Source: an uncultured bacterium
GTDB lineage: Bacteria > Omnitrophota > Omnitrophia > Omnitrophales > Abzuiibacteriaceae
Assembly: GCA_964387845.1 (NCBI GenBank)
Contig: CAYLXA010000008.1
Span: 44,270 to 108,269, forward strand
Direction: 5' to 3'
Length of the DNA: 64,000 bases
Positions 9,291 to 48,545 of this stretch are shown piece after piece; positions within the stretch are counted from its first letter, which is position 1; every line of letters starts with the position of its first letter. A program made the position numbers and the translations under genes. The notes below the pieces were generated by a model. It saw only the letters and a program-made list of their open reading frames with translations, made no database searches and was not told the DNA's origin.

Positions 9291-9376
9291 CTAGAAAGGA
9301 AATGCCAAGCTCCAAATACCAAATTCCAAAATGCGTTATTTAGAATTTGGAGTTTAGAATTTGGAATTTTAATAAA

Positions 9377-14463: not shown

Positions 14464-15977
14464 AGAAACTAGGAACCGTTTATTTAGTCGGTGCCGGCCC
14501 CGGAAATCCGAAATTGATTACGGTGCGTGGGCGCGAACTGCTTGAAGCTTGCGATATTGTGATTTACGATTCGCTGATTTCCGAATCGTTACTCAACTGC
14601 GCAAAAAATGCGGTCAAAATTTATGCCGGCAAAACCAGCAAAACACATAGAAAATTCAGCCAAGTTGAAATTGAAAAAATGTTGATTCATTATGCAAAAC
14701 TCGGAAAATCGGTCGTCCGTTTAAAAGGCGGCGACCCCTTTATCTTTGGCCGCGGTGGTGACGAGGCGCTGGCTTTGCAAAACGCCAAAATTCCATATGA
14801 AATTGTGCCCGGCATTACAGCAGCGATTGGTGCATCCGCTTTTGCGGGAATTCCGATGACGCACCGGCAAATGGCTTCTGACGTCACATTTATCACTGCT
14901 CACGAAGATCCGCTGAAACCCGACGTTCAAGTGAATTGGAAAGCGATCGCGAGCCTCACCGGAACTCTCGTGATTTATATGGGCGTTTACAGGTTAGAAG
15001 ATGTTGCAACTCGATTAATTCAACTTGGAAAAAATCCTGAAACGCCCACGGGAATTATCGAATGGGGAACCACTTCTAATCAAAAAACTGTGACAAGCAC
15101 TTTGGATAAGATTGCAGAAACAGCAGAAATGGCGAACATAAAGTCGCCAGCAGTTATCGTGATCGGAGAAGTTGTTTCGCTTAGGAAGCAGCTTGCGTGG
15201 TTTGAGGAAAGGCCGCTTTTTGGAAAAACGGTTGTTGTCACGCGGCCTCGCCATCAAGCCGGGGCGCTCGCTGAACTTTTAGAAAGCCAAGGTGCGCGTG
15301 TGGTTGAAATTCCCACAGTTGAAATTCATCCCGTCAAAAATTTGAAAAAAGCGGACGAGTCCATCCGCCAGATTTCAAAATACAATTGGCTGGTGTTTAC
15401 GAGTGAGAACGGCGTTGAATATTTTATGAAGCGGTTAAAGCAAATCGGTTTTGACGCGCGGAAGTTAAATAAAATTAAAATTGCAGTTGTCGGGCCGGGA
15501 ACAGAAAAAAAAATAAATTCTTATTCATTGAAAGCAGATTTTGTTCCGGAAGTATTTTCAACCGAAGACCTTTTCCGGGATTTAAAGCGAAAAAAAATGG
15601 TTCGCGGGAACCATTTTTTGCTGGTCCGGACGACAATTGCCAATGACGAACTCAAGAAATCGATTCAAAAAGAGGGCGGTTTTGCAACAGAGCTTTCGAT
15701 TTATGAAACACGCAAACCAAAGTTAGACCGCCGAAAGGTAAAATCGGCGGTCGAAAAGGTCGATTATGTGACGTTTACGAGCGCATCAACCGCAAATAAT
15801 TTTTTCAGTCTTTTTTCACGCGCGGAATTGAAAAATATAAGAAGTAAATTCATATCCATCGGGCCGGTTACCTCGCAAGCCATTCGAAGCTTCAAAGTTC
15901 CCGTGTATAAACAAGCGAATCCTTACACAATTCCCGGGCTTGTGGACGCAATCACGAACGGAAACGGAAAAAACTAA
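14460..15977 (+). CDS. cobA/hemD: Fused uroporphyrinogen-III C-methyltransferase / uroporphyrinogen-III synthase
   Basis: N-terminal VYLVGAGPGNPKLITVRGRELLEACDIVIYDSL...GGDPFIFGRGGDE is CobA/SUMT. C-terminal PLFGKTVVVTRPRHQAG...LVFTSENGV is the HemD fold. Confidence 0.9.
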   Translation: MKKLGTVYLVGAGPGNPKLITVRGRELLEACDIVIYDSLISESLLNCAKNAVKIYAGKTSKTHRKFSQVEIEKMLIHYAKLGKSVVRLKGGDPFIFGRGGDEALALQNAKIPYEIVPGITAAIGASAFAGIPMTHRQMASDVTFITAHEDPLKPDVQVNWKAIASLTGTLVIYMGVYRLEDVATRLIQLGKNPETPTGIIEWGTTSNQKTVTSTLDKIAETAEMANIKSPAVIVIGEVVSLRKQLAWFEERPLFGKTVVVTRPRHQAGALAELLESQGARVVEIPTVEIHPVKNLKKADESIRQISKYNWLVFTSENGVEYFMKRLKQIGFDARKLNKIKIAVVGPGTEKKINSYSLKADFVPEVFSTEDLFRDLKRKKMVRGNHFLLVRTTIANDELKKSIQKEGGFATELSIYETRKPKLDRRKVKSAVEKVDYVTFTSASTANNFFSLFSRAELKNIRSKFISIGPVTSQAIRSFKVPVYKQANPYTIPGLVDAITNGNGKN

Positions 15978-16948
15978 TGGCATATCCCAAAACGCGGCTT
16001 AGAAGGCTCCGGCGCACGGAAAATCTGAGGCGCCTTGTCAAGGAAACACATCTTTCTCCGGATCAGTTGATCATGCCGTATTTTGTTTCGGAACTGATCC
16101 GAGGCAAAGAGCCGATTCAATCAATGCCGGGACAATTCCGGTATTCAATATCCGCGCTTTTATCAGAGCTCGATGGTTTAAGCCGCACAGGGGTTCGAAA
16201 TATCATCCTGTTCGGAATTCCGAAGAACAAAGATGAAAAAGCGCGCAGTGCTTATTCATCAAAGGGAATTATTCAACAAACCACGCGCCAAATCAAAAAG
16301 CGTTTTCCGGGGCTGAATGTGATCACGGATGTTTGCCTGTGCGAATACATGAGCCACGGCCATTGCGGCATCATTCAAAAAAACCATGTTCAAAATGATG
16401 CAACGCTTACGCTTCTTGCCAAAACTGCGCTTTCGCATGCCGAGGCCGGCGCCGACATTGTGGCGCCGAGCGACATGATGGACGGCCGGATTGCCGCGAT
16501 CCGCAAAAATTTAGACCGAAGCGGTTTTGAGGAATTGCCGATAATGAGTTATGCCGCGAAATTTGCCTCAGCTTATTATGGGCCGTTCCGTGAGGCCGCG
16601 CATTCTGCTCCGTCATTTGGCGACCGGAAAAGTTATCAGATGAATCCGGCCAACCGGAAAGAGGCCTTGCGCGAAATCGAAACGGATATTGAAGAAGGCG
16701 CCGATATTGTCATGATCAAGCCGGCGCTGCCGTATTTGGACGTGATTCGGGATGCGAACGCGAAGTTTCAAATTCCGTTTGCGGCCTATCAAGTGAGCGG
16801 TGAGTATTCGATGATCAAAGCGGGTGCCAAAGCCGGGTTTATGGATGAGCGGCAGCTGGTTTTGGAAACATTGCTTTCAATTAAACGGGCGGGAGCCAAT
16901 ATCATTCTGACGTATTTTGCAAAAGACGCTGCGAAATGGCTGAAATGA
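15977..16948 (+). CDS. hemB: Porphobilinogen synthase (delta-aminolevulinic acid dehydratase)
   Basis: RLRRLRRTENLRRLVKETHLSPDQLIMPYFV, cysteine cluster CLCEYMSHGHCG (Zn-type), DIVMIKPALPYLD, YQVSGEY active-site lysine region. Confidence 0.9.
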   Translation: MAYPKTRLRRLRRTENLRRLVKETHLSPDQLIMPYFVSELIRGKEPIQSMPGQFRYSISALLSELDGLSRTGVRNIILFGIPKNKDEKARSAYSSKGIIQQTTRQIKKRFPGLNVITDVCLCEYMSHGHCGIIQKNHVQNDATLTLLAKTALSHAEAGADIVAPSDMMDGRIAAIRKNLDRSGFEELPIMSYAAKFASAYYGPFREAAHSAPSFGDRKSYQMNPANRKEALREIETDIEEGADIVMIKPALPYLDVIRDANAKFQIPFAAYQVSGEYSMIKAGAKAGFMDERQLVLETLLSIKRAGANIILTYFAKDAAKWLK

Positions 16949-17964
16949 ATCAATCAGTTTCAAAACACTCCTCACCCCAACCCTCTCCCATGGGGAGAGG
17001 GCAGGGTGAGGGGTCGAGAAGATTTCATTTTTCAATTCTTGTTTTTTTCGGTACGTTCATCCTTTGCTTCGCGCTCTGGATGACTTATCTACAGCAAGTC
17101 GGCTCCTCCGAAAATCATTTCGGAAGTTACCTGATTCTGATCATGGGCCTTTTATTTTCGGCAGCCTGCGGACTTTTTGTTTGGTCGCTTGAGTCCCGGG
17201 AACAGTTTCTCAAGAATGAAGTTGAGAAGCGGACGGTTCAGCTTCAAAGCATTAATGAGGAACTCGCCGAAAAGAATAAAGAAATCGAAAGCTTTGCTTA
17301 CGCCATCTCGCACGATTTAAAAGCACCGCTGGTTTCCATTCAAGGTTTTACGTCATTATTAAAATCCGAACTCGGAAAAACTGCCGAAGGGCCTGTCGGT
17401 GCTCAACTAGACCGTATTTCAGCAAACGTAAAACAGATGAGTGCGCTTATTCAGGATATCTTGGAATTTTCAAGAGTCGGCCGCATGGAAGAAGAGCAGG
17501 AAAGTGTCGATATGAATGAGCTTTTCAAGGAAATCACGGCTGCGCTGAGGCCTCAAATTGAAAGCAAAAAAATCATACTTGAAATTAAACCGCCTTTTTC
17601 AACGCTGTGGGGATCCCGGAAGCGCCTTCAACAGGTATTTATGAATTTGATCGGAAATTCCGTTAAATATATAGGTACTACGCCCAGCCCCAAGGTTAAA
17701 GTATATGGCCGGGAATCCGGAAACGGGCTTTTTGAGATTTGCGTTGAAGACAACGGCATCGGGATCCCGAAAGAAGCTCAGGAAAAGGTATTTAAAATTT
17801 TTCAGCGTTTTCATCCTAAATTGGGCGTCGAAGGGACCGGAATCGGTTTGAGCACCGTCAAGAAAATCGTAGAGACGAGCGGCGGGCGGATTTCGTTTAC
17901 GTCGGAACCCGGCAAAGGAACGTCTTTTTTTATCGCCTGGCCGAAAACGGATTTAAAAAAATGA
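16945..17964 (+). CDS. Sensor histidine kinase (2 TM, HisKA + HATPase_c) with an in-frame palindromic-element insertion near the N-terminus
   Basis: H-box FAYAISHDLKAPL, N-box LIGNSVKY, G-boxes DNGIGIP / GTGIGLSTV. Start placed at the ATG overlapping the hemB stop (ATGA). The ORF opens at 16936. Confidence 0.8.
   Translation: MNQSVSKHSSPQPSPMGRGQGEGSRRFHFSILVFFGTFILCFALWMTYLQQVGSSENHFGSYLILIMGLLFSAACGLFVWSLESREQFLKNEVEKRTVQLQSINEELAEKNKEIESFAYAISHDLKAPLVSIQGFTSLLKSELGKTAEGPVGAQLDRISANVKQMSALIQDILEFSRVGRMEEEQESVDMNELFKEITAALRPQIESKKIILEIKPPFSTLWGSRKRLQQVFMNLIGNSVKYIGTTPSPKVKVYGRESGNGLFEICVEDNGIGIPKEAQEKVFKIFQRFHPKLGVEGTGIGLSTVKKIVETSGGRISFTSEPGKGTSFFIAWPKTDLKK
16970..17011. repeat. REP-like nested palindrome CCTCACCC-CAA-CCCTCTCCC-ATGG-GGAGAGGG-CAG-GGTGAGG inside a coding region
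   Basis: Perfect nested inverted repeat. It is translated in-frame as SPQPSPMGRGQGEG in the kinase N-terminus. A related double unit is at 41725-41808. Confidence 0.7.
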
Positions 17965-18374
17965 AACAGATTTTCATGGTCGAAGATAATCCCGATCATG
18001 CGTTTTTGATTCAAACCGCAATCGGGGAAGATGACTGCAAAATTACGCATTTTCCGGAAGGGCTGTCGCTATTTGAATTTTTTGAATCAAACCAAAGCCC
18101 CGAAGCGCTCCCGGAGCTGGTTTTGCTGGACCTGAATCTTCCGCAGCTGGATGGTTTTCAGATTTTGAGCAAAATGCGGGCAAATGCGAGGTTAAAACTC
18201 ATTCCGGTCGTCATGCTTACGACTTCGAAAAGGCCGGAAGAAATTAAGCGTGCTTATGAGTTGGGTGCACATGGGTTTGTATCGAAGTCAGAAGATTTCG
18301 GAAACCTAAAGAATCAGTTGGCATGTGTTAAAAATTATTGGCTGAAAACAGTGGAGAAACCGAGCGTCACATGA
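17961..18374 (+). CDS. Single-domain response regulator (REC only)
   Basis: MVEDNPDHAFLI...LVLLDLNLPQLDGF...LTTSKRPEEIKRAYELGAHGFVSK: phospho-acceptor Asp and conserved Thr/Lys present. No output domain. Confidence 0.8.
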   Translation: MKQIFMVEDNPDHAFLIQTAIGEDDCKITHFPEGLSLFEFFESNQSPEALPELVLLDLNLPQLDGFQILSKMRANARLKLIPVVMLTTSKRPEEIKRAYELGAHGFVSKSEDFGNLKNQLACVKNYWLKTVEKPSVT

Positions 18375-23446: not shown

Positions 23447-26400
23447 GTGCGCAAAAAGCCATTTTTCATCAAAGCAATTGCCCTAGCGCTTTGCTTTACT
23501 TTTATCGCTACCGATACCATCGCTTATTCCGACGCAGCTCAGACATCTCCGCAACTGGCGGAGATGCTGAAGCAGTCCTCGAACTGGTTGAGTTTGAGGG
23601 CCGCTACCATTTCGGGACTTTTCCGCAACGCCGCACCTTCTGTTTCCGGTACGCGTTTACCTGCCGCAGCTCCCAAGTTCGCCCGTTACTTGTCAGAACT
23701 TCGAAATGAAGCCAATGAAAAACCGGTTACGGCTGACTACATATCCGCTCAAACAATTCAGAATCAAAAAACCAATGAAATTACGCCTCCGCCTCAATCT
23801 GAATTACGCCAAGAGAAGCCCAGATTTAAATCGCGGCACAGCTTTTTTAACCATGCCATACAGTTAAGCCGCAACTTATTCAAGCTTTCAGAGTGGAAAC
23901 ACCGGATTTTGAGATTGTCCAGCAGCTTCGGAAACCTTCCAGATGACATTCTGTTTCTAGTTACAACTCTTCCCATATTGATCGGAATATTGATAGTGGA
24001 TGCTCTTGATAATTTTCATGATAACCCCAAAACAAACGCAAGAATATGGTTCTGGGTTGTTACGAGTTCAGCGGTGTGGCTCTTCTCAGTGTTAACTGCC
24101 AATGTTGTTTTATTCAGATTTCAGAAACCTGCAAAAAGAAAATTGCCGGCAAAATCTGATCAGAAAGTTCAACGATCTGAATTGCGCGGCCATTCGGGCG
24201 TAGGGAGTTATGTCATTGGCGATTTGGAATTTAATAAAGGTGATCCAACCGGCTTTGAATTGATTAAACGGTTGATCGGAGAAGTAAGAGCAGGTCTTTT
24301 AACCGGCGAACTTCAAAAAGCCGGCTTGGATCAAGATTCTATTTCACATATATTCCGGCTTGCTTCTTCGCCTAGTAAAAGTGCGCGCGAGCCAATTGGT
24401 TTCAAATACAGTGAAGCGGCCGGTCAGTTTGAGCTGATTAAAAATGATTTGCGCACCTATCTTCATCAGCTTCAGAAAACACAAAATCATGATCACGAAA
24501 TCAATGTTTATGCGCTTGGGTTAGGCAATCTTCCGGTTGAAGCAGAGGAAGTCATCAAGTTGTTTCTGAACGTCATGGAAGAGGAGCTTGGCGAAGCAGC
24601 CAAAAATTGGTCTTTTAATTTTATCGGAATTGATTTTCAAGACGAACCCATCAAAGTCGCGCGAAAATACTTTGCAGAAGATATGGCTTCTCTAAAAGAA
24701 AAAGGATTCCGGAAAGTCACTTTACAAGCTGTGAAGGCAAACGCACTGTCATCTTCAGAGCTGACGCGGGTATTTGAAGAAACGGGTGGCTCTAAGAAAG
24801 CAGACTATTTATTTCATCGGCATGTGATGTATGTAAACCGTGCTTCAAGTTGGTTAAATCAGCTTCGAGGCCTCACTCCTATCACGATGTTACGGCCTGT
24901 GCTTGCTGACGCGTTGGAGTCGTACCTTCAATCACAGAATTTGATCGGCGCATTTACAAAAACAGGTACACGTTATGTTATTGAACCTCTCGCCAGCTCA
25001 GACCCAAGCATACGGGAAGTTGTCATTCCGGGATCCAGCGTTTTGCCGCAGGAAAATGGCGCAGCCGGCAGCGGGATTTATATTGTGAATGACCCCGCCG
25101 TTTTTACAGCAACCGGCTTCATTCAATATCTCCAGGATCAGCTTGGAGAAAATTTCTCCATCTCCGGCCCTCTTCGGGTCGATCGGACTGGAGGCCGGGG
25201 AGAGCTGCGCCGGGCTTCGAATTTTCATTTTGTAAACACAGTACGCAGAGTGTTGCGGCGGGAAATCGCCCAAATAGAAAAAGACAAGTGGCAAAACTGG
25301 GCAGTTGGTTTTGAGCCTGTGCAAGATGTTGCAAGCCACCTTGTCCGCGGTGCAAAGGGCGAGCTATGGATTCATTTGCACTTAACCTACCACGGACATG
25401 ATAAACGTGCTCGTTTCGCCGAAAATGGCGTCTATGACTTGGGATTGCTTTTCCGGATAACCGATCGAGAGAATCAATTAACTCTTGATGCCCCCATGAT
25501 TGAACCGCAAATAGGCCGGTCTGACTATTTTGCTTTTACACGCGCCGAAACGGTGCTTTCTTCCGAGCAGGCGGCCCGGCTTGTGAAGGAGGGAACGGAA
25601 TTTGTCAATTCGCACGCCGGTCCGATCCGCAGTGCAATGCGTCTTGCCAAGAAAAAACCGAGCTCAATTCATAATCTATTGGGCCGTGCAGTATCGCCCC
25701 GGCACGCACGAGGCCTTTACAACATGATGACATTAGGGCATGAGGAAAAGCGTGTGATTGACCGTACAAAAAGGCGCTCGGTTACTTATCGGTTTGTGGG
25801 CAGCCGGCGAAGCGAGCTGCGTCAAAAATCGGAATTAGATTCGGCCCGAGAGTTTGTGGCTCACGCTATCCAAACCGGCCAATTGAAATTAGATCTGTTT
25901 GATCGGGGAAGGGAGCCTGCAAAACAAATTCTTCAGGAAGTTTTAGCTGAAAATCAAAAGCGAAAAACGGATCATATTCAAGAAGTCGAAACCGCAAGGC
26001 ACAAAATAGCAACTTTCGAATCAAGGTTCAAAAAAATCCGTGATGAAATTGATTTTGACCCGTTTAAACCTCTGGCGCCGACGGAGCAGGAAAAAATCAT
26101 GGAATGGTGGGCTGATGACCTGTACATGATGGAATATGAAATCAGAAATTATTTAGCCGAAATTCAGTCGGGGCAGCATCCGTTTTCAGGAAACGAATTG
26201 GATCAAGTAGTGGATGCTTTAATAGCCGCTTACCGGTGGAGTATGGATGTTGTTGCTTTTTTTGAAAAACAAAAAGCAGAACTATTATTCTTTCGAAATC
26301 AAGAGACCACCGACAGCGAAGAGTCGGCCGATACCATGGCGGCACTTTCAGGCGCATTTTCAGTTTTAGCCGACATCAAATCTCCGCGCGGACAAATCCC

Positions 26401-29400
26401 GGAAAATGTTTTTTTTGCCATAGCTGCAACCAAGCGCCACAAAGCGAAAGAATTTTTACTTTCTGTTCTTCGTGAGATTGGTTTCGATAAAACAAAATCC
26501 GAAACCCAGAAAATCGTGAGAGGAAGGGCGCTTAATTATCTGTTTGCCCACTTTCACAGCTCGGAACTTGCAGCACTGGCCCGGCAGGCAATTGAAAATT
26601 TAGGCAGAGAGCAAAGATTTGATTACGATGGCTGGGCATTTGATAGCGCGTTCATGGAACTTTTGCCTTATCTCGGAGATGAGAATGTTAAAGCGTATAT
26701 TTTTAATTACTTAAAAGATGATTTTCAATTCGGAAAAGCTCTCGAAGCTGGGAACTGTTTGGAATACTTGCTGTTCGATTTAGAAACCGCGGAGGTCCCG
26801 GGTTGGTTTAAGGAGCGCTTGCAGATTTATTCGGAAAAAAATGCAGCGGCTATGGATGATTTTGGAATTACGGAAAATCAGGAAGCCTATTTAAATCGAA
26901 TTAAAAAATTAAATGATTTTCTAGCTCTAAAAGAAGCCGGAATCGGGCTGCCGTCTTATCAATTTTCAAAATACGTTTTTCGGCCTATTCATTCACAGGA
27001 TGAAATAGACACACTGCGCAAAATGAGCGGTTCATTTCCCGGACGACGCCCTGGTTGGAGCCCATGGGATATGACCGATTTTGTATTGGAAGATAGCAAG
27101 ACCCGTCAAATTGTCGGAGGCGGCATGATTTCGGAGCATGACTACGACACAGAAGCGCACCATATTCATCTTGTTGCTCTGAGTGACCAGCTGCAAGGCC
27201 GGGATAGGGCAGATGCGTTTGTGTTTATTCTCGCCGGCATGTTGCAATCCATGTCGCCAAAAATCAAAGGCCGGAAAGTTGTTTGGCGCACATGGGTAAA
27301 AGATATTCTGGAAAAGACACTCGCGCTTGATTTGGCGGGCGTTGATTTAGAACCTCTCATCAATCAAAACCCTGATGATGCACGCTCGGAATTGCTCAGT
27401 AAGCCTGAATCGCAGAATCCTATCCTCGAAATCAATCAAGATTGGCGAAACATTTTTGATGACAACGCAAAACCGCTGGTGGTGGATGTCGGGTTCGGAA
27501 ACGGAGAAACACTGCTTTACCGAGCACAGCACGAGCCGGACAAAAATTTCATCGGTATCGAACTTCCCGAAGAGCCGTATGCGGATATGCTGGCTGAAAG
27601 GATTCAAACAGTGGGAATCAAAAACCTAAAAGTCCTCAAAGTGGCTGATTTTGAGGCATTTCGCACTCAACTCAAATTCGGGAACCAAGCAATCGTTTCA
27701 GAGCTAACTTATTACGATCCGTTTCCGGATAGTCCTTATGTATTTAGAGAACATACCGCTGATTTACAGCAAATTTTAAAACCCGGCGCGCTCGTTAAAA
27801 TCATGGTTTTTGAACACGAATTTTGGCAAGAACTGTCCGGCATTTTTGAATCCAACGGATTTCAAACGCTAAATCCTGCCGACCATGTTTTTGAGGATAA
27901 TCATGATACGCAGGATTCAAATGAGGCATTTAGCACTCAACTGAAACTTATTTTCCGATGGCCCGGTCTATCATCAAATCGTTCCGAATTGCGCCAAGAC
28001 CTCAAAATTCAGACGATTCTAAACGATATTGCCCAAAGCAGATTGATTTCGGAGAATCAGCCGGAAACTCGGTCTTTTTTTAATAGAATTTCGGATCGGT
28101 TAAAACAAAAATCAGTTTCCCAAACTTTCTTTTTGACCGGATTGTTACTTTCATCTTATGTCTATATTTTATTCGAGCGCTGGCTTGCTGCCGAGCCGGT
28201 CGAATCGAATGCTCAAGAAATAGCTGCCGCCATTTTACTATTGGGCATTATTTCTACGATTTTTACCACGATCGTTAAGAGAATGAATAAGTCTAGTACA
28301 TCCTGGCGCTGGGATGTTATTAGCTTTTCGGAAAATCAAATCATAGAAGATGCATTGACTTTTCTGGACCCTCACAAACATCAATTAAATCCCAATGTGG
28401 ATATTATTGTTGAGAAAAGAAGCCACAGGTTTAAGCGTATTGCCATCGGATTTTTCAAAGAAAGTTTAAAAAATCTTGGCGCCGGTGCAATGTTTTTATT
28501 GATAGGAGGCTTTTTAGCTTGGAAAATTGGATACGGCCTTCTTGATTTGTACAAGCAAGACCTGCACGCTGCATTTAAAGTCCCTGTCTATGGCATATTC
28601 GGCGCGGGGCTGATTGTGTTTGGTTTTGTGGGCATGATGGGATTTACCGTGCTTTTTCTATCTCCGTTCATTGCTCTTATGCAGGCTTGGGATGGAGAGT
28701 TTTCAGATAAGGGAATCGAGGACCAAAGAATTTTTGTCCAGCACCAAGAATCCGAAGATGTTTTTTACGAGACGCTAGTTGAAGAATTAAATCACCGTTT
28801 CAAACTCCGCCGAGAGCCGCTTCCGGAGTTTCCAAAAACACTGGATGGTTTGCGGCTCGCCATGATACTCAAACGCTACGGCCTCCCCGGCAGTGAAATT
28901 GCGAATCGTTCCGCCTCCGGCCTCCTCCGGGTCTTGCGCCCTGAAGGGTCAGAGACCGCAGACCGTAACGCTCTCCGAGCCAACGGCTCGATGGAGCCGA
29001 GGGCACGGGGGGAACTTCGGCAGTCGGAACCTCGGAAGATGAGCAGGGCTGAGCTCGCCTCTTTATTCAGGGCGCAGCTACGCGAGGCGAATTTCATTGC
29101 ATCGATACCGGTGTTGATACAACACGTATGGAATGTAATCGCCAAATTAGCAAAGCCCCTCAACTTCCAGTTTCGCGAACTAGGCCTAACGCAAGAGCTC
29201 CTCCGTTTGCAGACAGGGTTTTGGATCACCCGATTTGGGCCTGAAGACCGGATGTGGTGGGGACTCCGCGACGGCATGAAGTTCGGAGATACCGTTAATT
29301 GGTGGGGGCCTAAACAAAAAAGACCGGAGCCCCTGGGTTTTCATACCGGGATTGATTTTGTGATGTATCAAAATTTTCAAAAGGCCTGGAAAACAATTCC

Positions 29401-38400: not shown

Positions 38401-38992
38401 ACAAAACAGGTTGGATGCCGTCATTCATGAAATCCGGAATAATTCATCAAGTGCCGTACGTTCAGAATTAAAAGTTCAGAGCGAGAAATTGGTTCAATTT
38501 TTAACCGGCGGACAAAATAGAGCCACGTCATTGTCGGGCACTGCCGAAGCTGCCAACGCGCGCTCGGCGTTTGTCTTTTTGCCCGGAACCACCAATGAGC
38601 TGGGCGCTGTTTTTAACCAGATTACAGAAGCTCTTGCCGCCAAAAGCGAATTGAGAGCCGAAATCATTGCTTACGTGGATGGCCCGTTGATGGCGCGCAC
38701 AATCCGTGAAATCATCCTCGGTGTTCAGGGCGCTGAGCGTGTCCATATCGTGGCGAGTAATGAAGAGGCCGTGGCTAAAGCTCAGTCTCTAAACGTTGCG
38801 CATGCACATTTGATCGGATGGGAGGGGGAGCTTGAAGCGCCGTTTGTCCAAAATTTGGAGGACAGCTACCTGAAGCTCGGTATTCGCGTGGTGAAGAAAA
38901 ATGTAAGTGATTTCATGAGTTTTCTCGGGCGTGAGGCCGCTCGTTTTATCCAAGGATGGAAATCAGCAGTTCTCTACGCCAAATCCGCATAA
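23447..38992 (+). CDS. Giant (5181 aa) secreted/membrane-anchored mosaic protein with about 18 [RK]SELR linker motifs, 3+ methyltransferase domains, an M23 peptidase domain, HhH and HTH modules, and FYN-G beta-repeats
   Basis: Uninterrupted 15,546-nt ORF. N-terminal signal peptide MRKKPFFIKAIALALCFTFIATDTIAYS. TM clusters at about 23.84-24.12, 28.09-28.69, 31.0-31.35 and 35.46-35.83 kb. Recognisable modules: TrmB-like MTase (VVDVGFGNGETLL...FIGIEL), M23 (GFHTGIDF...PHLHLSIGW), RpoA-alphaCTD-like HhH (ISRLNIRYRLQRRIRQAGIRTVGQLVDL), MTS-type MTase (LVVGSGSGFDTW...FDRIIWNMPEH), PIMT (GQTISQPS...VLEVGAGSGW...PFDKIVVSAG...GGLLIIPV), 3 x HTH, 6 x FY(N/D)xxGxLL repeats. Confidence 0.85.
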   Translation: MRKKPFFIKAIALALCFTFIATDTIAYSDAAQTSPQLAEMLKQSSNWLSLRAATISGLFRNAAPSVSGTRLPAAAPKFARYLSELRNEANEKPVTADYISAQTIQNQKTNEITPPPQSELRQEKPRFKSRHSFFNHAIQLSRNLFKLSEWKHRILRLSSSFGNLPDDILFLVTTLPILIGILIVDALDNFHDNPKTNARIWFWVVTSSAVWLFSVLTANVVLFRFQKPAKRKLPAKSDQKVQRSELRGHSGVGSYVIGDLEFNKGDPTGFELIKRLIGEVRAGLLTGELQKAGLDQDSISHIFRLASSPSKSAREPIGFKYSEAAGQFELIKNDLRTYLHQLQKTQNHDHEINVYALGLGNLPVEAEEVIKLFLNVMEEELGEAAKNWSFNFIGIDFQDEPIKVARKYFAEDMASLKEKGFRKVTLQAVKANALSSSELTRVFEETGGSKKADYLFHRHVMYVNRASSWLNQLRGLTPITMLRPVLADALESYLQSQNLIGAFTKTGTRYVIEPLASSDPSIREVVIPGSSVLPQENGAAGSGIYIVNDPAVFTATGFIQYLQDQLGENFSISGPLRVDRTGGRGELRRASNFHFVNTVRRVLRREIAQIEKDKWQNWAVGFEPVQDVASHLVRGAKGELWIHLHLTYHGHDKRARFAENGVYDLGLLFRITDRENQLTLDAPMIEPQIGRSDYFAFTRAETVLSSEQAARLVKEGTEFVNSHAGPIRSAMRLAKKKPSSIHNLLGRAVSPRHARGLYNMMTLGHEEKRVIDRTKRRSVTYRFVGSRRSELRQKSELDSAREFVAHAIQTGQLKLDLFDRGREPAKQILQEVLAENQKRKTDHIQEVETARHKIATFESRFKKIRDEIDFDPFKPLAPTEQEKIMEWWADDLYMMEYEIRNYLAEIQSGQHPFSGNELDQVVDALIAAYRWSMDVVAFFEKQKAELLFFRNQETTDSEESADTMAALSGAFSVLADIKSPRGQIPENVFFAIAATKRHKAKEFLLSVLREIGFDKTKSETQKIVRGRALNYLFAHFHSSELAALARQAIENLGREQRFDYDGWAFDSAFMELLPYLGDENVKAYIFNYLKDDFQFGKALEAGNCLEYLLFDLETAEVPGWFKERLQIYSEKNAAAMDDFGITENQEAYLNRIKKLNDFLALKEAGIGLPSYQFSKYVFRPIHSQDEIDTLRKMSGSFPGRRPGWSPWDMTDFVLEDSKTRQIVGGGMISEHDYDTEAHHIHLVALSDQLQGRDRADAFVFILAGMLQSMSPKIKGRKVVWRTWVKDILEKTLALDLAGVDLEPLINQNPDDARSELLSKPESQNPILEINQDWRNIFDDNAKPLVVDVGFGNGETLLYRAQHEPDKNFIGIELPEEPYADMLAERIQTVGIKNLKVLKVADFEAFRTQLKFGNQAIVSELTYYDPFPDSPYVFREHTADLQQILKPGALVKIMVFEHEFWQELSGIFESNGFQTLNPADHVFEDNHDTQDSNEAFSTQLKLIFRWPGLSSNRSELRQDLKIQTILNDIAQSRLISENQPETRSFFNRISDRLKQKSVSQTFFLTGLLLSSYVYILFERWLAAEPVESNAQEIAAAILLLGIISTIFTTIVKRMNKSSTSWRWDVISFSENQIIEDALTFLDPHKHQLNPNVDIIVEKRSHRFKRIAIGFFKESLKNLGAGAMFLLIGGFLAWKIGYGLLDLYKQDLHAAFKVPVYGIFGAGLIVFGFVGMMGFTVLFLSPFIALMQAWDGEFSDKGIEDQRIFVQHQESEDVFYETLVEELNHRFKLRREPLPEFPKTLDGLRLAMILKRYGLPGSEIANRSASGLLRVLRPEGSETADRNALRANGSMEPRARGELRQSEPRKMSRAELASLFRAQLREANFIASIPVLIQHVWNVIAKLAKPLNFQFRELGLTQELLRLQTGFWITRFGPEDRMWWGLRDGMKFGDTVNWWGPKQKRPEPLGFHTGIDFVMYQNFQKAWKTIPEGTEVQALYGGTVVSVFQDDMQSTLVVNQEITDTDGGNTLVTIYAHIEPETNVQPGVKIEAGDVLGRIRRSRNERSIVSPHLHLSIGWAKPEFFERLKSDGVDWPFVDALAKEGLLTYVDPLTFLDKNEADHFFMNAQHNKLKKILILNTQPGAQFFLTRQVIEKQFPGVTTLAVRSFEEAQKILNDPSSEIDAVVRVDESASISFPRKYLKRTAVLDYQEKNKREFLRQLHVVNVIGRLYHEPISRLNIRYRLQRRIRQAGIRTVGQLVDLANLPKKFRKFTTGLSKVPEGLERRLQGSRYKDEIIRAIVSVQPQAILTRSILHRRSLGFFQMAYRLTFGFEYHPETRNFAELILFLNGLSGSVFKELVKQFDVHIQTDLIDILQRVARIAPEAISVNVLEMFIDDEETPKRMRENFNTLADLIHMARNDTKRFKEIFGYQISWHVLLLLLEILYDAVPGEIMWQEWPDLVHTVLNPHNLPRTFGSGGLSGHINAYSAAIQAHWRRLMAEHKGYAKRKDRSELRQAGDRQIFQRAFQGIAFGGYGAGLIAATWQMLTVYPQMLRPSLFVILLTWNFYQIVKLILKQPFVSQEKINQEKYINRQLIITHLPQLGLIKAHMLAPWLEAFMQAPEVGALFLTVSGLLVSKLAFDSYLRNDGRASGRSELRTNDPEEPNAKNPRTSTYETIISNRPQMNPTESNTEQASLFMAPLENVTPDAVRWLDRVFNSRLPKGQYVFVGVVVDRKSKDIQAFQDGVYMIAKFLEVGGAFEEIGLNEIKNKKLRRRITAVGKGSSVRVIEFASVGGGDDYEIPLRRLQGVVEDYYSNEPIVWIPISPEGELSSTLGWKPKNRAFHLTLVHQAPEQEPEARSELRNDGGIILEAGQQIKAVEGYQMQLQENGSVAFYRERLSSPEPDPVEVVKPTMAGMPVYDEAGNIMGYVGITHDFEGQGEDRKLIARTAFYPEPEFDIEKTHVPSTWPAWELLKAVGLLIPKEDAHILKIEDISQTSDSKIHRITVRVPEEQSFPLRGIEILARELIENPSAEQQFDLVYNEKGHLLAVFPVFGNENRAAAEDGLFLDVSPYYFEVPKDIRGESKLLIDQFLREWRQNQQHIQAYQKKHFGSNRMNFWHFSYNNDENNDEDNKEEPLYQFYHLLHSHGHDLSYLGEVEVQSLEHIFYYVSKDPDRKMLLLPIFPTVFPPSGDPQHDTEYHKAILIDPRFDLNENQRTLVVGSGSGFDTWLVSLKTRKTVSVIDINPLAVANTKALAKIAGFKVLARTADNIVDESGKPTFPDARFDRIIWNMPEHVEGDGPSHGQLATQRTKWYLTDHWDGDVDGFSLTRFASGLCDILNPDSRVLIWNSNNEDSILNAFENRGMEVERAGLNYRYSLYFIQPSAAAGELLEPISNSADQRSEPQKHIAVLQRFKHNPTGFMGWLKNEIAEVLTIIDMPSGQFMKLPDAERRKKNQRIENAISMLYGVEDFISAKDAAKIIKNIDEARRMLDEIYQMSEWRKNDFSAIRGGKQDSKLPASTEQAWHARDIFNEFLPKNGLGEALQKYTGDKKVLDTAAEKWLPVFTRVPKHLFMPKYLRQDAYLHDAPYRIGYGQTISQPSLVAFILALLDLEPSDEVLEVGAGSGWLAALMSQQAAHVYATELIPQLAGRAERVIENMGIQNVSIVEADGSVGYPQAAPFDKIVVSAGSPNVPELLVNQLREGGLLIIPVLDPAASKKQKSYKLTLFVKEGGKLTEKLAIDRVNFVDLRGVHGWQPAPKRSELRRAAQPKDSNSEKSTPKPETESDRRIIRAVNYFLKEKRPFNQGDIAKKARVSLQTVTNRKHANPSIARFVDWALEKAPKAEPKSVQALIRAAKQLKKEGKSGVTNSVVADLAGYHPQTVTSISKLYPKVKQAVQGARQSPHAQISPTIQKVVDVIKAAAKKKQVFQNEGQIAQAAEIRPETLSRIKKRRSSYREPFLQLLQYAVSDPDRALEIIKKHFSIHSEQRVSVQASAQDENLRSELRADGAIQDPGMVVTALIGVAAFGILIFGFDSVRERAFKVGSAALKLIRRLFWLWTGVLWISTHLAYAAHRVRPDSQDKIYQATGFDPGDLNYSEFLYPWAIFTVFIYPVAAFGLMRYLNRLVMRRNVLPFETSPSRSIPAHPTTSELDINRKVGTAQPSDQYSKDPLMKGRAELRASGSNPKKKDTSKATDLEKRFKELLEEADRTLEANKQLEDGLDEIHKVLPELPKDIIDGRSELRQSDPIGTASALPGPLAKSELRNFLPNQNPINRLDAKQGSGIGARGNVLEGRSGSNSEFYNYRGEKVLVLPTSTAKGILGLGDFIVVMPRPKPGTQDHILFYNSSGSLLFEAVNVSDYSLVGENMAIKFANGNIQFYDKTGKKLLSSFDHFSNFHPSQIDLQGDLLVFKKSSNEVGFYNSTGSLILRKSKGTDFDSFYVKGSFIVLVKKDNHHVYSGLTGKLIAKTQASVGETAQFDGDFFAVVNWNEFTFYNLQGKKILEKRTGSGDDNFINWSGEGGLLTFDKTHSRTFYDENGKLLAAIQKRVFASRVVNKVLRLEDNADFYEWYDFSPNALSASSKGQKSLDQIFSHNPAMLSRIRDYVKRRYDNPLMSREEPNHDLSSDLDDASNLIQLEKMPTEWIDDLSSLVLTGYNPSDKGARSILKEAAIQLGLIQAPSSQTKEAVPITYNQKALMRILSSGVITEAIRNGQFSFPTTGKRSSLIFLSDDGTNVKRIDETDSAKANVQLEFYLSSDNRTVGVSISVRDDNKASGWRVQHEEPKQLKDLQTSIEPASSKPSLTIVSARKQRTLDELINKVSKFPGWSNPGPSTYSFAHQATQISAFYTGIVPNLQPRWAWHLKVISSGYNLSVVVEDHIQSPGKWITVVKFNNSGSNNSVASQEWGNHLIDIEQNGLKTNIYMTKAYVDSLVKNRIPLKGATIDGVEWEFIPINPKQILPAKSELRTQAEQVSIETLDAALSVEPKAQNRLDAVIHEIRNNSSSAVRSELKVQSEKLVQFLTGGQNRATSLSGTAEAANARSAFVFLPGTTNELGAVFNQITEALAAKSELRAEIIAYVDGPLMARTIREIILGVQGAERVHIVASNEEAVAKAQSLNVAHAHLIGWEGELEAPFVQNLEDSYLKLGIRVVKKNVSDFMSFLGREAARFIQGWKSAVLYAKSA

Positions 38993-40491: not shown

Positions 40492-42486
40492 TTATTCGTA
40501 ACGAAGTGCTTCGATAGGATCGAGTTTGGCAGCTTTTTGTGCGGGCCAAATGCCGAAAATGATGCCGACGGCGGAGGAGAATCCGACGGAGAGCAGAATT
40601 GAATTGAGGGAAACACGGACGGCCCATCCAAAAGCATGCGCTAAACCGTAAGCGACGGCAGAACCGATCAAAATGCCGGCAGCGCCTCCGATCAAGCTGA
40701 CCACCATCGATTCAACCAAAAATTGCAAATAAATGTCCTTCCTCTTTGCGCCGATGGCCTTCCGGAGGCCGATCTCTTTTGTTCTTTCCGTAACGGATAC
40801 GAGCATGATGTTCATGATACCGATTCCGCCGACAAGAAGCGCAATTCCGGCGATAGAGCCCAGAAAAATCGTCATGGTTTGAGTGACTTTTGCGATGGAT
40901 TCCTGAATCTCCGTCATGTCGCGGATTGTGAAGCTGTCTTTACGGGTTTCGGGGAGCCGGTGGCTTCTGATGAGCATGGGAATAATCGCATCCTTTACGT
41001 CCTGAATTTTTTCTTTTGCTTCAACTTCAACTTCGATGGTGCGCAAATAATCGGTGCCGATGAGCCGTTTCATGGCGGTCATGATCGGAATGATGACCAC
41101 ATCGTCTTGATCGCGCCACTGGTTTCCGCCTTTTTCGGGAAGGACGCCGATGACGCGGAAGGCGATCCGGTTGATACGGATAATTTTGTTAATCGGATCT
41201 TCTTTATCAAAAAGTTTCTGGCGGACTGTTTTGCCGATCACAACTACTTTGGCTCTTGTCATATTTTCCCTGTCCGTAAAGAACCGTCCGAGAACAGGTT
41301 CTGCCGCGCGCATTGAAGCGTATTCGGGAGCAACGCCCTGGACTTCCGAATTCCAATTTTTGTTTTGATACACCAGCTGTACGCCGGCCTGGACCGTGGG
41401 GTTGACGCGTTTAACATTCGGAAGTTCACGAACGGATTTCAGGTCGTCCAACGTGAGCCGCGCCGCAGCGCCTTCTGCCATGGCAACGCCGCGCAAAATC
41501 GCGTTGTTGGGCCTCACGACGATTAAATTAGAGCCCAATCTTTCGAGGTCAGCCGTCATGGAAGCTTTGGTGCCTTCACCGAGCGCGAGCATCGCAATCA
41601 CGGATCCGACACCGATTAAAATTCCGAGCATTGAAAGCACCGAACGGACTTTATTGGCAAGAATGGCGGTGATGGCTTGTTGAACAAAGATGCTGATTTC
41701 TTTGAGGATTGAAGAAGAAGGCTTCCCCTCACCCTTACCCTCTCCCCTTAGGGGAGAGGGAAAAGAATTCGATCCCCCTCTCCCTCCGGGAGAGGGTGGG
41801 GTGAGGGAGGTTGAAGAGCCTGAGTCAGAAACGATCTGCCCGTCTTTCATTCGGATTTGGCGCTTTGCATATTCCGCGACTTCTTCTTCATGCGTCACCA
41901 GAATAATCGTGAGCCCCTTTTCATTCAGATTTTTAAGCAGTTTCATAATTTCAGTTTGCGTGTGTGAATCCAAATTTCCTGTCGGTTCATCCGCCATGAT
42001 GATTTTAGGATCGTTGATGAGTGCGCGAGCGATGGCAACGCGCTGCTGTTCGCCGCCTGAGAGTTGGTTGGGTTTGTGCTGTGCGCGTTTCTCGAGATTG
42101 ACTTCGCGTAAGCGTGTCAGAATTTTCTCTTCATTTTGGGAATCTGCATTCGGGCTATAAATCAGCGGCAGCGCCACATTTTTGGATGCGGTCGTGCGGG
42201 AAAGCAGGTTGAACATTTGAAAAATAAAGCCGATTTTTTGATTTCTCAAAACCGCAAGCGCATCATCCGAAAGCTCCGAAATTTGCTCGCCGTCCAAAAT
42301 AAATTCGCCGGAGTCCGGAACATCCAAAAGGCCCAGGACGTGCATCAAAGTTGATTTTCCGGAGCCCGACGGGCCCATGATGGCAATAAATTCGCCGGGT
42401 TGAATGTCGAGTGAAACACCGCGGAGTGCGTGGACTGAGGTTTCGCCGGAAGAGTAGGTTTTTTGAATATTTTTGAGCTTGATCAT
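40492..42486 (-). CDS. macB: MacB-type ABC transporter (fused ATPase + FtsX-like permease) with an in-frame palindromic-element insertion in the linker
   Basis: Walker A GPSGSGKST, Q-loop, signature LSGGEQQRVAIARAL, Walker B IIMADEPTGNLD. C-terminal 4-TM FtsX domain. The linker PSPGGRGGSNSFPSPLRGEGKGEG is encoded by the repeat at 41725-41808. Confidence 0.9.
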   Translation of the reverse strand: MIKLKNIQKTYSSGETSVHALRGVSLDIQPGEFIAIMGPSGSGKSTLMHVLGLLDVPDSGEFILDGEQISELSDDALAVLRNQKIGFIFQMFNLLSRTTASKNVALPLIYSPNADSQNEEKILTRLREVNLEKRAQHKPNQLSGGEQQRVAIARALINDPKIIMADEPTGNLDSHTQTEIMKLLKNLNEKGLTIILVTHEEEVAEYAKRQIRMKDGQIVSDSGSSTSLTPPSPGGRGGSNSFPSPLRGEGKGEGKPSSSILKEISIFVQQAITAILANKVRSVLSMLGILIGVGSVIAMLALGEGTKASMTADLERLGSNLIVVRPNNAILRGVAMAEGAAARLTLDDLKSVRELPNVKRVNPTVQAGVQLVYQNKNWNSEVQGVAPEYASMRAAEPVLGRFFTDRENMTRAKVVVIGKTVRQKLFDKEDPINKIIRINRIAFRVIGVLPEKGGNQWRDQDDVVIIPIMTAMKRLIGTDYLRTIEVEVEAKEKIQDVKDAIIPMLIRSHRLPETRKDSFTIRDMTEIQESIAKVTQTMTIFLGSIAGIALLVGGIGIMNIMLVSVTERTKEIGLRKAIGAKRKDIYLQFLVESMVVSLIGGAAGILIGSAVAYGLAHAFGWAVRVSLNSILLSVGFSSAVGIIFGIWPAQKAAKLDPIEALRYE
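41725..41808. repeat. Double-unit REP-like palindromic element inside macB
   Basis: CCCCTCACCC..CCCTCTCCCC-TTAG-GGGAGAGGG...CCCCCTCTCCC-TCCG-GGAGAGGG-TGGGGTGAGGG. Two inner palindromes sit within outer CCTCACCC/GGGTGAGG arms. It is related to the unit at 16970-17011. Confidence 0.7.
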
Positions 42487-47095: not shown

Positions 47096-47142
47096 TCATC
47101 ATGCGTAAATCACAGCTCATAAAATCAAAGGGACCTGTCACC

Positions 47143-48474: not shown

Positions 48475-48503
48475 AGAAATAAAGCGGTTTCTGAGAATCA
48501 AAT

Positions 48504-48545
48504 ACAAAACGGGACAGCTTTTAAGCTGTCCCGTTTTGTATTTGA
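48504..48545 (+). terminator. Rho-independent terminator
   Basis: CAAAACGGGACAGC-TTTTA-GCTGTCCCGTTTTG followed by TATTT. Confidence 0.65.

Follow-up and report, generated by a model that had tools for sequence, protein, structure and literature searches.

BoxC/PIT/TMECO repeats within the histidine kinase and MacB reading frames of an uncultured Omnitrophota bacterium, and their association with DUF559 genes elsewhere

The 64,000-nucleotide stretch of DNA analysed here (the window) comes from an uncultured Omnitrophota bacterium of about 47% GC and carries two short palindromic features. The first, site 1 (16970 to 17013, forward strand), lies in a histidine kinase ORF with HisKA and HATPase_c domains (16936 to 17964, forward strand), in the N-terminal cytoplasmic tail ahead of the first transmembrane helix. 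Upstream is hemB (ALAD, porphobilinogen synthase; 15977 to 16948, forward strand), whose stop codon is 22 nt from site 1 and overlaps the kinase start as ATGA at 16945-16948. The second, site 2 (41725 to 41808, reverse strand, which is the gene strand), falls within macB (40492 to 42486, reverse strand), encoding a 664-aa fusion of an ABC ATPase with MacB_PCD and an FtsX permease. It occupies the linker that leads from the ATPase to the first transmembrane segment (approximately residues 227-254), between ABC_tran (residues 21-169) and MacB_PCD (from residue 282). The three genes were assigned from their ORFs and domain searches, with homologue comparison for the kinase and MacB and gene callers for the kinase.

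Site 1 is a single unit composed of a C-arm, a hairpin and a G-arm, delimited by pattern match, fold and alignment with relatives. On the forward strand, the C-arm CCTCACCC (16970-16977, with one further C to 16978) is followed by the spacer CAA, the left stem CCCTCTCCC (16981-16989), an ATG loop (between 16989 and 16993), the right stem GGGAGAGGG (16993-17001), a second loop CA (between 17001 and 17004) and the G-arm GGGTGAGG (17004-17011, extended by GG to 17013). Its length is 42 nt, or 14 codons, and the encoded peptide is SPQPSPMGRGQGEG. Site 2 is a double unit, identified by two pattern matches (one per strand), its fold and alignments with contigs L005, L004 and L330. Read on the forward strand, it contains a C-arm CCCCTCACCC (41725-41734), TTA, a first hairpin (41738-41760), a 15-nt A/T-rich spacer (41761-41775), a second hairpin (41776-41796), a T and a G-arm GGGGTGAGGG (41798-41807). 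Terminal inverted repeats are present, the entire unit being its own reverse complement. The core hairpin pattern matches three times in the window against 0.00 expected (100 shuffles), GGGAGAGGG occurs six times against 0.25 expected, and the four occurrences of GGGTGAGG are confined to the two sites. Considering Watson-Crick pairing only, the predicted RNA folds reach -38.8 kcal/mol for site 1 (z -5.6) and -63.6 kcal/mol for site 2 (z -4.2). An Rfam scan of 16000-18000 gave only sub-threshold chance matches (mir-593, 23.5 bits versus a gathering score of 100). No further unit was found on Logan contigs that extend the window by about 8 kb upstream, which amounts to two loci (three modules) per approximately 72 kb of contig; the whole MAG was not covered.

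A sequence-only reading of this DNA had described palindromes at 16970-17011 and 41725-41808, inserted in frame into two unrelated genes at places that tolerate extra sequence. These palindromes are real, are arranged exactly as described and would not be expected by chance. Both lie inside ORFs whose frame is intact, the translations given for the kinase (...SSPQPSPMGRGQGEG...) and, on the gene strand, for macB (...PPSPGGRGGSNSFPSPLRGEGKGEG...) are correct, and both segments vary freely among homologues. The same reading had raised the question of a single translated frame, and here the data point the other way. A third in-frame double unit is present in a 704-aa TPR membrane protein on contig L330, which derives from the same sequencing run as the window (SRR15237813) and has a similar GC content, without membership in the same genome being proven. 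The spacer of this unit resembles those of relative L004 and the window macB, and L330 as a whole holds two repeat loci. The kinase and MacB read PSP..GRG and the TPR protein PLP..GEG / GER, which means that two or more of the three open frames are in use, and the single-frame hypothesis was rejected.

Judged by their sequence, both features are members of an already described repeat family, BoxC/PIT/TMECO, also called the "intrastrand triplex motif" (TM). The published pattern is CCCTCNCCC-N3-6-GGGNGAGGG-N3-GGGNGAGGG, with 9-nt blocks and one mismatch allowed (PMC4666352). With the second loop relaxed to 2-3 nt, the window contains three exact matches where none is expected. The match at 41726-41760 (reverse strand) fits the strict published pattern, with loops of 5 and 3 nt, whereas the other two, at 16981-17012 and 41776-41807, depart from it by a second loop of 2 nt. 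What had been taken for outer arms is the third block of this three-block motif. The block composition is that of the oligonucleotides characterised in PMC4666352, and there are no data on triplex folding of the window copies. Like BoxC/PIT/TMECO, the window units combine the three-block sequence CCCTCTCCC, GGGAGAGGG, GGGTGAGGG with short loops, have stems far better conserved than loops and vary locally between close relatives; they also appear to be dispersed, often as inverted pairs. Two hairpin variant types occur, CCCTCTCCC and CCCTCCCC.

Dispersed copies of the motif were already known from E. coli and numerous further bacteria (Holder et al., 2015, PMC4666352; Enterobacter sp. 638, PMC2869309), and we found its 26-base core in at least 120 stretches from many phyla, including Omnitrophota, as well as in viral contigs. 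In E. coli K-12, 23 of 23 copies are reported to be intergenic (PMC4666352), and most copies were also intergenic in the other low-GC genomes that we scanned. In contrast, the copies of the window, L330 and L004 lie inside ORFs, those of the window in frame. The modules are also oriented differently: pairs in E. coli face inwards, while in the window the two modules point outwards (C-arm, hairpin ... hairpin, G-arm) or have a single hairpin in common. In the published work considered, no function and no mobilising enzyme have been found for the family, which is linked there only to local genome instability, and Holder et al. found no link of TMECO to known mobile elements (PMC4666352). We found no later TMECO/BoxC work in the literature searched, the coverage of which was incomplete.

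Alignments with close relatives demonstrate lineage-specific gain and loss of units in both genes. Among three relatives, the number of hairpins in the kinase gene is 0, 1 or 2 (none in L002/L003, one in the window, two in L004). In MacB, the window has a perfect double unit and L005, a relative that is 90% identical, a decayed single unit with a fold z of +0.25. In both genes, the single form is shorter than the double form by exactly 36 nt. The peptide is absent from about 236 other, more distant MacB or kinase homologues, its carriers among the 240 belonging to the window's clade only, so that orthologues with the same peptide but no palindromic DNA, which would have spoken against an insertion, were not observed. 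P0123, which has no element, may hold a remnant (GGGAAAAGG) instead of an empty site, and more probably reflects loss or decay than a site that was never occupied. In P0002, which has a decayed single unit, the linker is of ordinary length, and the unit may therefore have taken the place of linker sequence instead of lengthening it. We detected no direct repeat that could represent a target-site duplication at the junctions of the copies in the window, L004, L330 and L184, and there is no clean empty site to define these junctions. The proposal that these units are a mobile element thus gains support from the dispersed copies of one family and from their differences in presence and copy number among close relatives, while mobility itself is inferred from such comparative patterns.

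Of special interest are genes encoding DUF559, which adjoin these modules at L111 (PriA), L014, L035 and E. coli ycjD. We searched with a DUF559 profile built from domain-only seeds, and examined 80 metagenomic loci selected for DUF559 alone, which were the best matches to seeds themselves adjoining TM modules. A strict BoxC hairpin lies within 150 nt of the gene in 41 of these 80 loci, versus 5 of 70 control ORFs in the same loci (Fisher p 1.6e-9), and hairpin density is 2.13 per kb near the DUF559 gene versus 0.11 per kb in the far flanks. Given how the loci were drawn, the association concerns that subfamily and not all DUF559. Upstream, a hairpin followed by a G-arm predominates (42 versus 9, binomial p 3e-6); downstream, it is a C-arm followed by a hairpin (39 versus 9, binomial p 1.5e-5). 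The DUF559 unit is discrete, of approximately 410-440 bp, with a hairpin and G-arm upstream and a C-arm and hairpin downstream. This full form is present in L330, L184 and many metagenomic loci, and the unit occurs in unrelated genomic contexts, including L330 from the window's own sequencing run. DUF559 is sometimes also embedded in frame in host genes, as in those for PriA (L111) and a methylase (L128). A structure is available for a DUF559 relative (3hrl). In the literature searched, again with incomplete coverage, no paper links DUF559 to BoxC. As a candidate empty site in E. coli we considered ycjD-negative strains such as O157, which carry a different island after fabI and are thus uninformative on excision.

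We consider it probable that the window copies are non-autonomous BoxC/PIT/TMECO copies that persist in genes and derive from a DUF559-bracketed element. Neither the window nor the adjoining 8 kb of recovered contig contains a DUF559 gene, and these copies can therefore only be non-autonomous derivatives. The basic module consists of three blocks: a C-rich arm, the complement of this arm and a second G-rich arm. The MacB copy corresponds to two modules placed back to back, in the order C-arm, hairpin, 15-nt spacer, hairpin and G-arm, and the kinase copy to a MacB-type structure collapsed on one shared hairpin, with the loss of one hairpin and the spacer, exactly 36 nt. Derivation of the double unit by internal deletion of the DUF559 element is unsupported: its module order is circularly permuted relative to hairpin/G-arm - DUF559 - C-arm/hairpin, so it is not a simple internal deletion. 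In the complete element, the upstream hairpin and G-arm may double as the ribosome-binding site of the DUF559 gene, and the downstream C-arm and hairpin supply its C-terminal tail and stop. Solo modules such as those of the window are inferred to be relics or satellites of the element, spread and homogenised when breaks made by DUF559 are repaired by copying from another copy. Several properties may explain their persistence in genes: a unit length that is a multiple of three, use of a frame that avoids the single TGA of GGGTGAGGG, landing in segments that are disordered and vary in length (the N-terminal tail of the kinase and, in MacB, the linker between ATPase and permease), and Pro/Ser/Gly/Arg/Glu peptides that would be harmless.

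Our conclusion is that both copies in the window are non-autonomous relics, which are tolerated where the host protein is disordered, the reasons for their persistence being inferred. Mobilisation by DUF559 is likewise inferred and has not been shown; we know of no demonstrated transposase or homing activity for DUF559. A broader hypothesis, which we put forward tentatively and which falls a little short of what we would call probable, is that BoxC/triplex-motif repeats are the termini and relics of an ultra-compact (approximately 0.4 kb) selfish element found across bacteria. Its sole gene, a DUF559 Vsr-like endonuclease, would recognise or cut the structured module and thereby drive the copying both of the element and of derivatives that lack the gene; either form could live in frame in host proteins. 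The host proteins concerned are the kinase, MacB and the TPR protein in the present case, and in other loci PriA, a DNA methylase and UDP-galactopyranose mutase.

DUF559 may not be the mobiliser, the repeats instead spreading via host recombination, replication slippage or an unknown enzyme, and DUF559 genes either homing into modules or using them as expression signals (a Shine-Dalgarno-like G-arm and a 3' hairpin). The distance from G-arm to start codon clusters at 5-17 nt, as would a ribosome-binding site, and the DUF559 gene of L111 looks as if it had been inserted into a double unit, whose spacer it occupies. Solo copies make up the majority of the TM family, DUF559 being found in only 5 of 240 loci that were picked by the TM motif, and approximately 38% of E. 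coli genomes lack ycjD yet retain the TM match. We nevertheless find this reading rather doubtful. Homology between independent copies stops exactly at the outer hairpin edges, indicating that gene and modules move as one unit: L330 and L184 align over only 409 nt, from hairpin to hairpin, with unrelated flanks, and eight further pairs give discrete alignments of 431-441 nt. The enrichment is moreover very strong and the orientation fixed, and self-propagating elements are usually built in this way, with an endonuclease embedded between copies of a structured sequence that is conserved.

A separate question is whether site 1 is translated at all. Site 1 can be coding only with a kinase start at the ATG at 16936 or 16945, and not with one at the hairpin-loop ATG at 16990. 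Were the latter used, or the unit otherwise untranslated, site 1 would be an ordinary intergenic or 5'-leader BoxC copy, and only MacB would contain a true in-frame insertion. A start at this loop ATG, which is in frame, would leave an 11-residue tail resembling that of some orthologues, such as P0129, P0131 and P0133, and the conserved MAExNQ codons upstream overlap the hemB C-terminus, which could account for their conservation. However, no purine-rich leader precedes the loop ATG, which would lie buried within the -38.8 kcal/mol hairpin. A start that overlaps the hemB stop as ATGA is typical of coupling. Whether 0, 1 or 2 units are present, the frame stays open, and the lengths differ by multiples of three. 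In L004, no in-frame start codon exists within or after the double unit up to the transmembrane helix, so translation there must begin upstream. In three relatives, all three gene callers (NCBI, Logan, JGI) place the kinase start upstream of the unit. Translation of the kinase through site 1 is thus likely, if not proven, and a non-coding site 1 is in our view unlikely.

The units might also be structured nucleic acids selected by the host. At the hemB-kinase junction such a structure could stabilise mRNA, in MacB it could make translation pause between ATPase and permease, and it could alternatively serve as a signal for recombination or replication; the stems would then be under purifying selection, with no selfish mechanism maintaining them, and the peptides a by-product. 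Conservation gives this idea some substance. The stems of the window and L004 are identical at 44 of 45 positions despite 75.5% identity of the genes in DNA and differing loops and spacer, and the approximately nine differences between the window and L005 MacB units all break the L005 palindrome and none that of the window. The predicted folds are very stable, and the kinase tree suggests that the unit was kept since before the split of the three relatives. Gene conversion among copies would, however, conserve the stems equally well. The unit is also dispensable, since it has disappeared or degenerated in P0123 and L005 and no other homologue has it, and the occurrence of the same sequence in unrelated genes and unrelated phyla argues against a gene-specific role. 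Together with the lack of promoter or terminator activity in E. coli tests (PMC4666352), this leads us to regard host selection as quite improbable. That the segments are native low-complexity linkers or assembly artefacts, for which one could cite only the typical linker length in P0002 and the possible remnant in place of an empty site in P0123, is effectively refuted by the alignments with relatives, by the identity of the DNA with a perfect copy of a repeat widespread in other genomes, by recovery of the same units in independent assemblies (the NCBI MAG and Logan contigs L001, L004 and L005) and by the absence of the peptide from other homologues.

BoxC/PIT/TMECO repeats are among the most widespread and best conserved bacterial repeats, and their origin and spread have been unexplained since the 1990s. 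If confirmed, our interpretation would mean that the family can persist in frame in essential-type genes of a candidate phylum, with stems remaining perfect over approximately 25% DNA divergence, which implies active homogenisation or selection. The tight and oriented association would make DUF559 a concrete candidate for the enzyme behind these repeats, and DUF559 may be the long-missing engine that spreads the BoxC family. It would also suggest what the very large family of 'endonuclease domain-containing' proteins, E. coli YcjD among them, may do. In annotation work the units should be recognised for what they are, since they give rise to spurious small ORFs and to odd Pro/Gly-rich inserts.

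The sequence-only reading had called the palindromes REP-like, a label that does not fit. REP/REPIN-RAYT systems share with this family short G/C-rich palindromes, often in inverted doublets, and many solo copies for each small repeat-flanked gene. That gene is an IS200/IS605-type tyrosine (HUH) RAYT transposase in REP, versus a DUF559 (PF04480) Vsr-like PD-(D/E)XK nuclease here, although no exhaustive RAYT scan of the window ORFs underlies this distinction. REP sequences carry a conserved GTAG/CTAC tetranucleotide at the 5' end, and both GTAG and CTAC are absent from 16960-17020 and 41715-41818. REP are also species-specific, while the window motif is nearly identical across phyla. REP/RAYT identity was therefore rejected, both sequence and associated gene being different.

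MITEs such as Correia, ERIC and Nezha resemble the window units in being small, having inverted-repeat ends and no transposase, and sometimes lying within genes with in-frame read-through. They differ in that the window units show no evident target-site duplication and end in self-complementary three-block modules, and in that the family has no known parental insertion sequence with a recognised transposase, its sole associated gene being DUF559. The DUF559 element in turn recalls free-standing homing endonuclease genes and Vsr-fold nucleases, as a small nuclease gene forming a discrete unit in unrelated contexts and in some cases lying in frame within a host gene. Unlike them, it involves no intron or intein, and its own structured repeats, rather than a split host target, bracket the gene; there are no data on its nuclease activity and specificity.

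The Rickettsia palindromic elements (RPE) are likewise in-frame palindromic repeats in unrelated coding genes, which add a tolerated peptide and encode no transposase. As far as the summary in PMC10969869 conveys, they are approximately 100-150 bp long and restricted to Rickettsia (Ogata et al., 2000). The window units are 42-84 nt long, have BoxC-type sequence and reside in an Omnitrophota host; no alignment to an RPE consensus was made. RPE are unrelated in sequence to the window's repeat family, which in contrast extends across bacteria and is linked to a nuclease gene.

The window (~92% coding, ~47% GC) derives from an uncultured Candidatus Omnitrophota genome, a name its homologues also bear, and Logan run SRR15237813 holds a contig identical to its own. 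The sequence-only reading had described REP-like mobile palindromes inserted in frame into a histidine kinase gene and macB. Re-read from the window, the sequences at both sites are exactly as it gave them, and its interpretation is upheld in substance as regards reading frame, variable segments and turnover among relatives. The first palindrome (16970-17011) reads CCTCACCC-CAA-CCCTCTCCC-ATG-GGGAGAGGG-CA-GGGTGAGG. The second (41725-41808) has the same outer arms around two hairpins, CCCTCTCCC(C)-loop-(G)GGGAGAGGG, with an A/T-rich spacer of ~15 nt between them. The window has three instances of the core hairpin pattern and 100 shuffles gave none, and within the 64 kb the 9-mers GGGAGAGGG and GGGTGAGG are confined to these two sites. 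Predicted single-strand folds are -38.8 kcal/mol (z -5.6) and -63.6 kcal/mol (z -4.2), respectively; an Rfam scan of 16000-18000 matched no family.

The second palindrome lies in a 664-aa MacB ORF (40492-42486, minus strand), in the linker after ABC_tran (residues 21-169) and before MacB_PCD (from residue 282), which is unalignable and length-variable among 40 homologues. A 156-aa antisense ORF (41690-42160, plus strand) runs across this unit (…PSPLPSPLRGEGKEFDPPLPPGEGGVRE…); it owes its existence solely to both strands of the palindrome being open, and exemplifies the spurious ORFs that these repeats make. The first palindrome, 22 nt after the hemB stop, sits in the N-terminal tail of the kinase (HisKA/HATPase_c, 16936-17964), whose orthologues carry a cytoplasmic tail of ~4-27 residues followed by a conserved transmembrane helix. 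Translation of the kinase probably begins at ATG 16936 or at ATG 16945, whose overlap with the hemB stop reads ATGA. For the window, initiation at the loop ATG (16990) remains possible; it is nonetheless unlikely, since the related kinase of contig L004 has no in-frame start within or downstream of its unit and needs an upstream one, and the frame is open across 0, 1 and 2 hairpins in the window and its relatives.

Judged by sequence, the repeat is a motif already in the literature, the BoxC/TM (triplex motif) family, known as BoxC in E. coli since the 1990s, as the PIT element (Hoyne/Maher 2000) and as TMECO (Holder et al., 2015, PMC4666352). As published, the TMECO pattern is CCCTCNCCC-N3-6-GGGNGAGGG-N3-GGGNGAGGG (PMC4666352); it has three exact matches in the window if the second loop is allowed 2-3 nt. 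The "outer arms" of the sequence-only reading are therefore this motif's third block, which occurs on both strands. A scan with a 26-base core, taking one genome per species, returned at least 120 stretches. The matches listed include Pseudomonadota, Planctomycetota, Chloroflexota, Cyanobacteria, Acidobacteriota, Verrucomicrobiota, Elusimicrobiota, Bacteroidota, Actinomycetota and two Omnitrophota, and viral contigs were matched as well, in a number that is likewise a minimum.

Comparison with close relatives shows that units are gained, shrink through a 36-nt collapse, and decay. In the kinase, the palindrome is absent from L002/L003 (P0123), a single 42-nt unit in the window, and 78 nt long in L004 (P0122), where the outer arms enclose two hairpins and a 15-nt spacer. 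In MacB, the window carries a perfect double unit of 84 nt, and L005 (P0002, 90% identical) a single unit with ~9 substitutions that abolish pairing (fold z +0.25). Single and double forms are exactly 36 nt apart in both genes, equal to one hairpin plus spacer, which recombination or slippage between two identical hairpins would produce. Across 240 MacB and kinase homologues, the encoded peptides are limited to the window's clade. Outside the N-terminus, kinase identity is 82.9% between P0122 and P0123, 80.0% between the window and P0122, and 76.8% between the window and P0123; the common ancestor of these three thus probably had the unit, with loss or decay following in P0123. The P0123 locus retains GGGAAAAGG at the position of GGGAGAGGG in the others and does not amount to a clean empty site. 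Arms and stems of the window and L004 are identical at 44/45 positions, against 75.5% for the gene DNA, while loops and spacer differ; between the window and L005 MacB copies, every difference is on the L005 side. In some lineages, therefore, the palindromes are under selection or undergo repeated homogenisation, and in others they decay.

In low-GC genomes of the core scan, in which a long open frame carries information, the majority of copies lie in short open frames and are therefore intergenic. Exceptions are a unit within the GLF domain of a Muribaculaceae UDP-galactopyranose mutase (L122) and two in-frame cases with DUF559 (L111 and L128). Two more are TM units that form the last residues and stop of a long ORF, in an Omnitrophica MAG (L030:1150-1170, ...PSPRGRGIG*) and an Elusimicrobiota genome (L073:1805-1827, ...PLPLRERVRVRGN*). 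All non-autonomous copies seen in the window's lineage are in frame within genes: the kinase copies of the window and L004, the MacB copies of the window and L005, and a third double unit on contig L330, within a 704-aa TPR membrane protein (translated ...NPHPNPLPQVGEGIKEVFPRPVGERGRVRG...). Arms and hairpins are common to the three double units, whose A/T-rich spacers (14-15 nt) are similar; they form one element family of ~80 bp. A single translated frame for all copies, a possibility raised by the sequence-only reading, does not hold, because the frame differs from copy to copy. The hairpin is stop-free in every frame and the sole stop is the GGG-TGA-GGG of the G-rich arm (G-arm), so to survive in a gene a copy needs a length divisible by three, a frame avoiding this TGA, and a permissive site.

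Of special note are modules adjoining DUF559, a Vsr-like endonuclease family (PF04480) whose closest solved structure, 3hrl, was deposited as an "endonuclease-like protein". A PriA ORF from a Gastranaerophilales MAG (L111:1774-4404) contains, in frame, a C-rich arm (C-arm), a hairpin, 363 nt coding for DUF559 (PF04480, E 9e-39), a hairpin and a G-arm; the domain, with half-units on both sides, lies ~10 residues upstream of the helicase Walker A motif. A metagenomic N6_N4 DNA methylase ORF (L128:1432-5508, 1358 aa, GC 0.47) is in frame across several TM units (PSPLRGGGWGEG, PSPLRGEGWGEG, PSPPWGEGWGEG, PSPQKGEG) and a complete DUF559 domain. Modules stand on either side of a DUF559 gene in Acinetobacter (L014), and one adjoins a DUF559 fragment in Dyella (L035). 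In E. coli K-12 (L126, 1349500-1352500), the C-terminus of the DUF559 protein YcjD (...SPSP*) lies within a degenerate BoxC hairpin; TMECO no. 9 is 168 nt beyond the ycjD end, with a duplicated DUF559 3'-end fragment of ~30 nt in between. This is the fabI/envM region, in which BoxC was originally described. Of 5,426 complete E. coli genomes, 3,378 carry ycjD and 38% lack it; O157 has a TetR/RND island in its place. In the literature searched, DUF559 is mentioned by 25 papers, none of which ties it to these repeats.

Among 80 metagenomic loci selected by DUF559 homology alone, 41 had a strict hairpin within 150 nt of the domain (30 carry it upstream and 24 downstream, 13 of these having both), compared with 5/70 for other ORFs of the same loci (odds ratio 13.7, p 1.6e-9). 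Strict hairpin density was 2.13 per kb near DUF559 and 0.11 per kb in far flanks. A generic C/G-rich hairpin finder, applied to the 67 loci with both flanks available, gave at least one side in 58 and both in 34. Module orientation is fixed: "hairpin then G-arm" upstream (42 vs 9 in the opposite order, p 3e-6) and "C-arm then hairpin" downstream (39 vs 9, p 1.5e-5). In about half of the loci the G-arm ends 5-17 nt before the DUF559 start codon, a Shine-Dalgarno-like spacing, and many DUF559 ORFs end inside or just ahead of the downstream module. Since the 80 loci were the best matches to seeds themselves adjoining TM modules, the association is valid only for the sampled subfamily. In the reverse direction, DUF559 occurred in 5/240 TM-selected loci, each time 10-187 nt from a hairpin; solo modules are thus far commoner than gene-bearing ones. 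Downstream of DUF559, L154, L163, L181 and L193 carry variant modules with CCCTCCCC/GGGGAGGG replacing CCCTCTCCC/GGGAGAGGG and unchanged architecture, a hint of possible covariation between the hairpin's sequence and the lineage of DUF559.

Together with the modules on either side, DUF559 genes form discrete units that recur in unrelated surroundings. In nine locus pairs, alignments covered only ~410-440 nt with kilobases of flank available. One pair joins L184 to L330, a contig of GC 0.48 that shares its sequencing run with the window and encodes DUF559 protein P0242: homology is restricted to 409 nt, exactly hairpin to hairpin, and neighbouring genes are unrelated. L184 and L002 come from one JGI sample, and the identity of P0242 to the L184 protein (78%) agrees with that of the kinase pair (76%), which suggests, without proving, that each of two related genomes carries one DUF559 element, at different places.

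Other repeats were also seen. A/T-rich imperfect palindromes with CAAAT/CCAAA-like hexamers occupy short intergenic gaps at 9300-9369 and 58688-58744 and may be a second, unrelated family; similar "caaattgcagatt" repeats lie upstream of the L154 DUF559 element. An imperfect palindrome at 61634-61691 (GCTTCAAG...CTTGAAGC, arms 27 nt, 78% complementary) separates ORFs 61128-61628 and 61937-63136, and a perfect 23-nt inverted repeat (48498-48545, loop 2 nt) directly 3' of ORF 47092-48474 looks like a terminator. The window also holds three giant ORFs (23447-38992, 48732-53426 and 54071-58684; 5181, 1564 and 1537 aa); neither the 1564-aa product nor, in L001 (the contig identical to the window's), the truncated product of the largest gene has a recorded Pfam match.

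We propose that solo and double units may be satellites or relics of the DUF559 element. Its nuclease would act on the structured module, and break repair copying from another copy would spread and homogenise modules; the encoded peptides would be passive. This mechanism explains neither why BoxC 9-mers are nearly invariant across phyla nor why the window's double unit is a circular permutation of the canonical gene-bearing form, and none of the junctions showed a target-site duplication. Of these results, the association with DUF559 most merits pursuit, and E. coli ycjD allows a direct test.

TMECO numbers 3,610 copies in 262 proteobacterial genomes; the 23 in E. coli K-12 are all reported as intergenic, with inverted pairs at five sites (PMC4666352). 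Its isolated G-strand forms a triplex in vitro, none being detected in vivo; neither promoter/terminator activity nor a tie to known mobile elements was found, and its flanks vary more than control regions (PMC4666352). In Enterobacter sp. 638, the hairpin lies at gene 3' ends, in 100 copies (PMC2869309). Rickettsia RPEs and some other MITEs offer precedents for palindromic repeats in frame within genes (PMC10969869), and our literature search found no report of BoxC in frame inside genes. The window's units belong to BoxC/TM and reside in frame within variable protein segments; the family is already known, and such residence in this Omnitrophota lineage is a new variant of a known behaviour.
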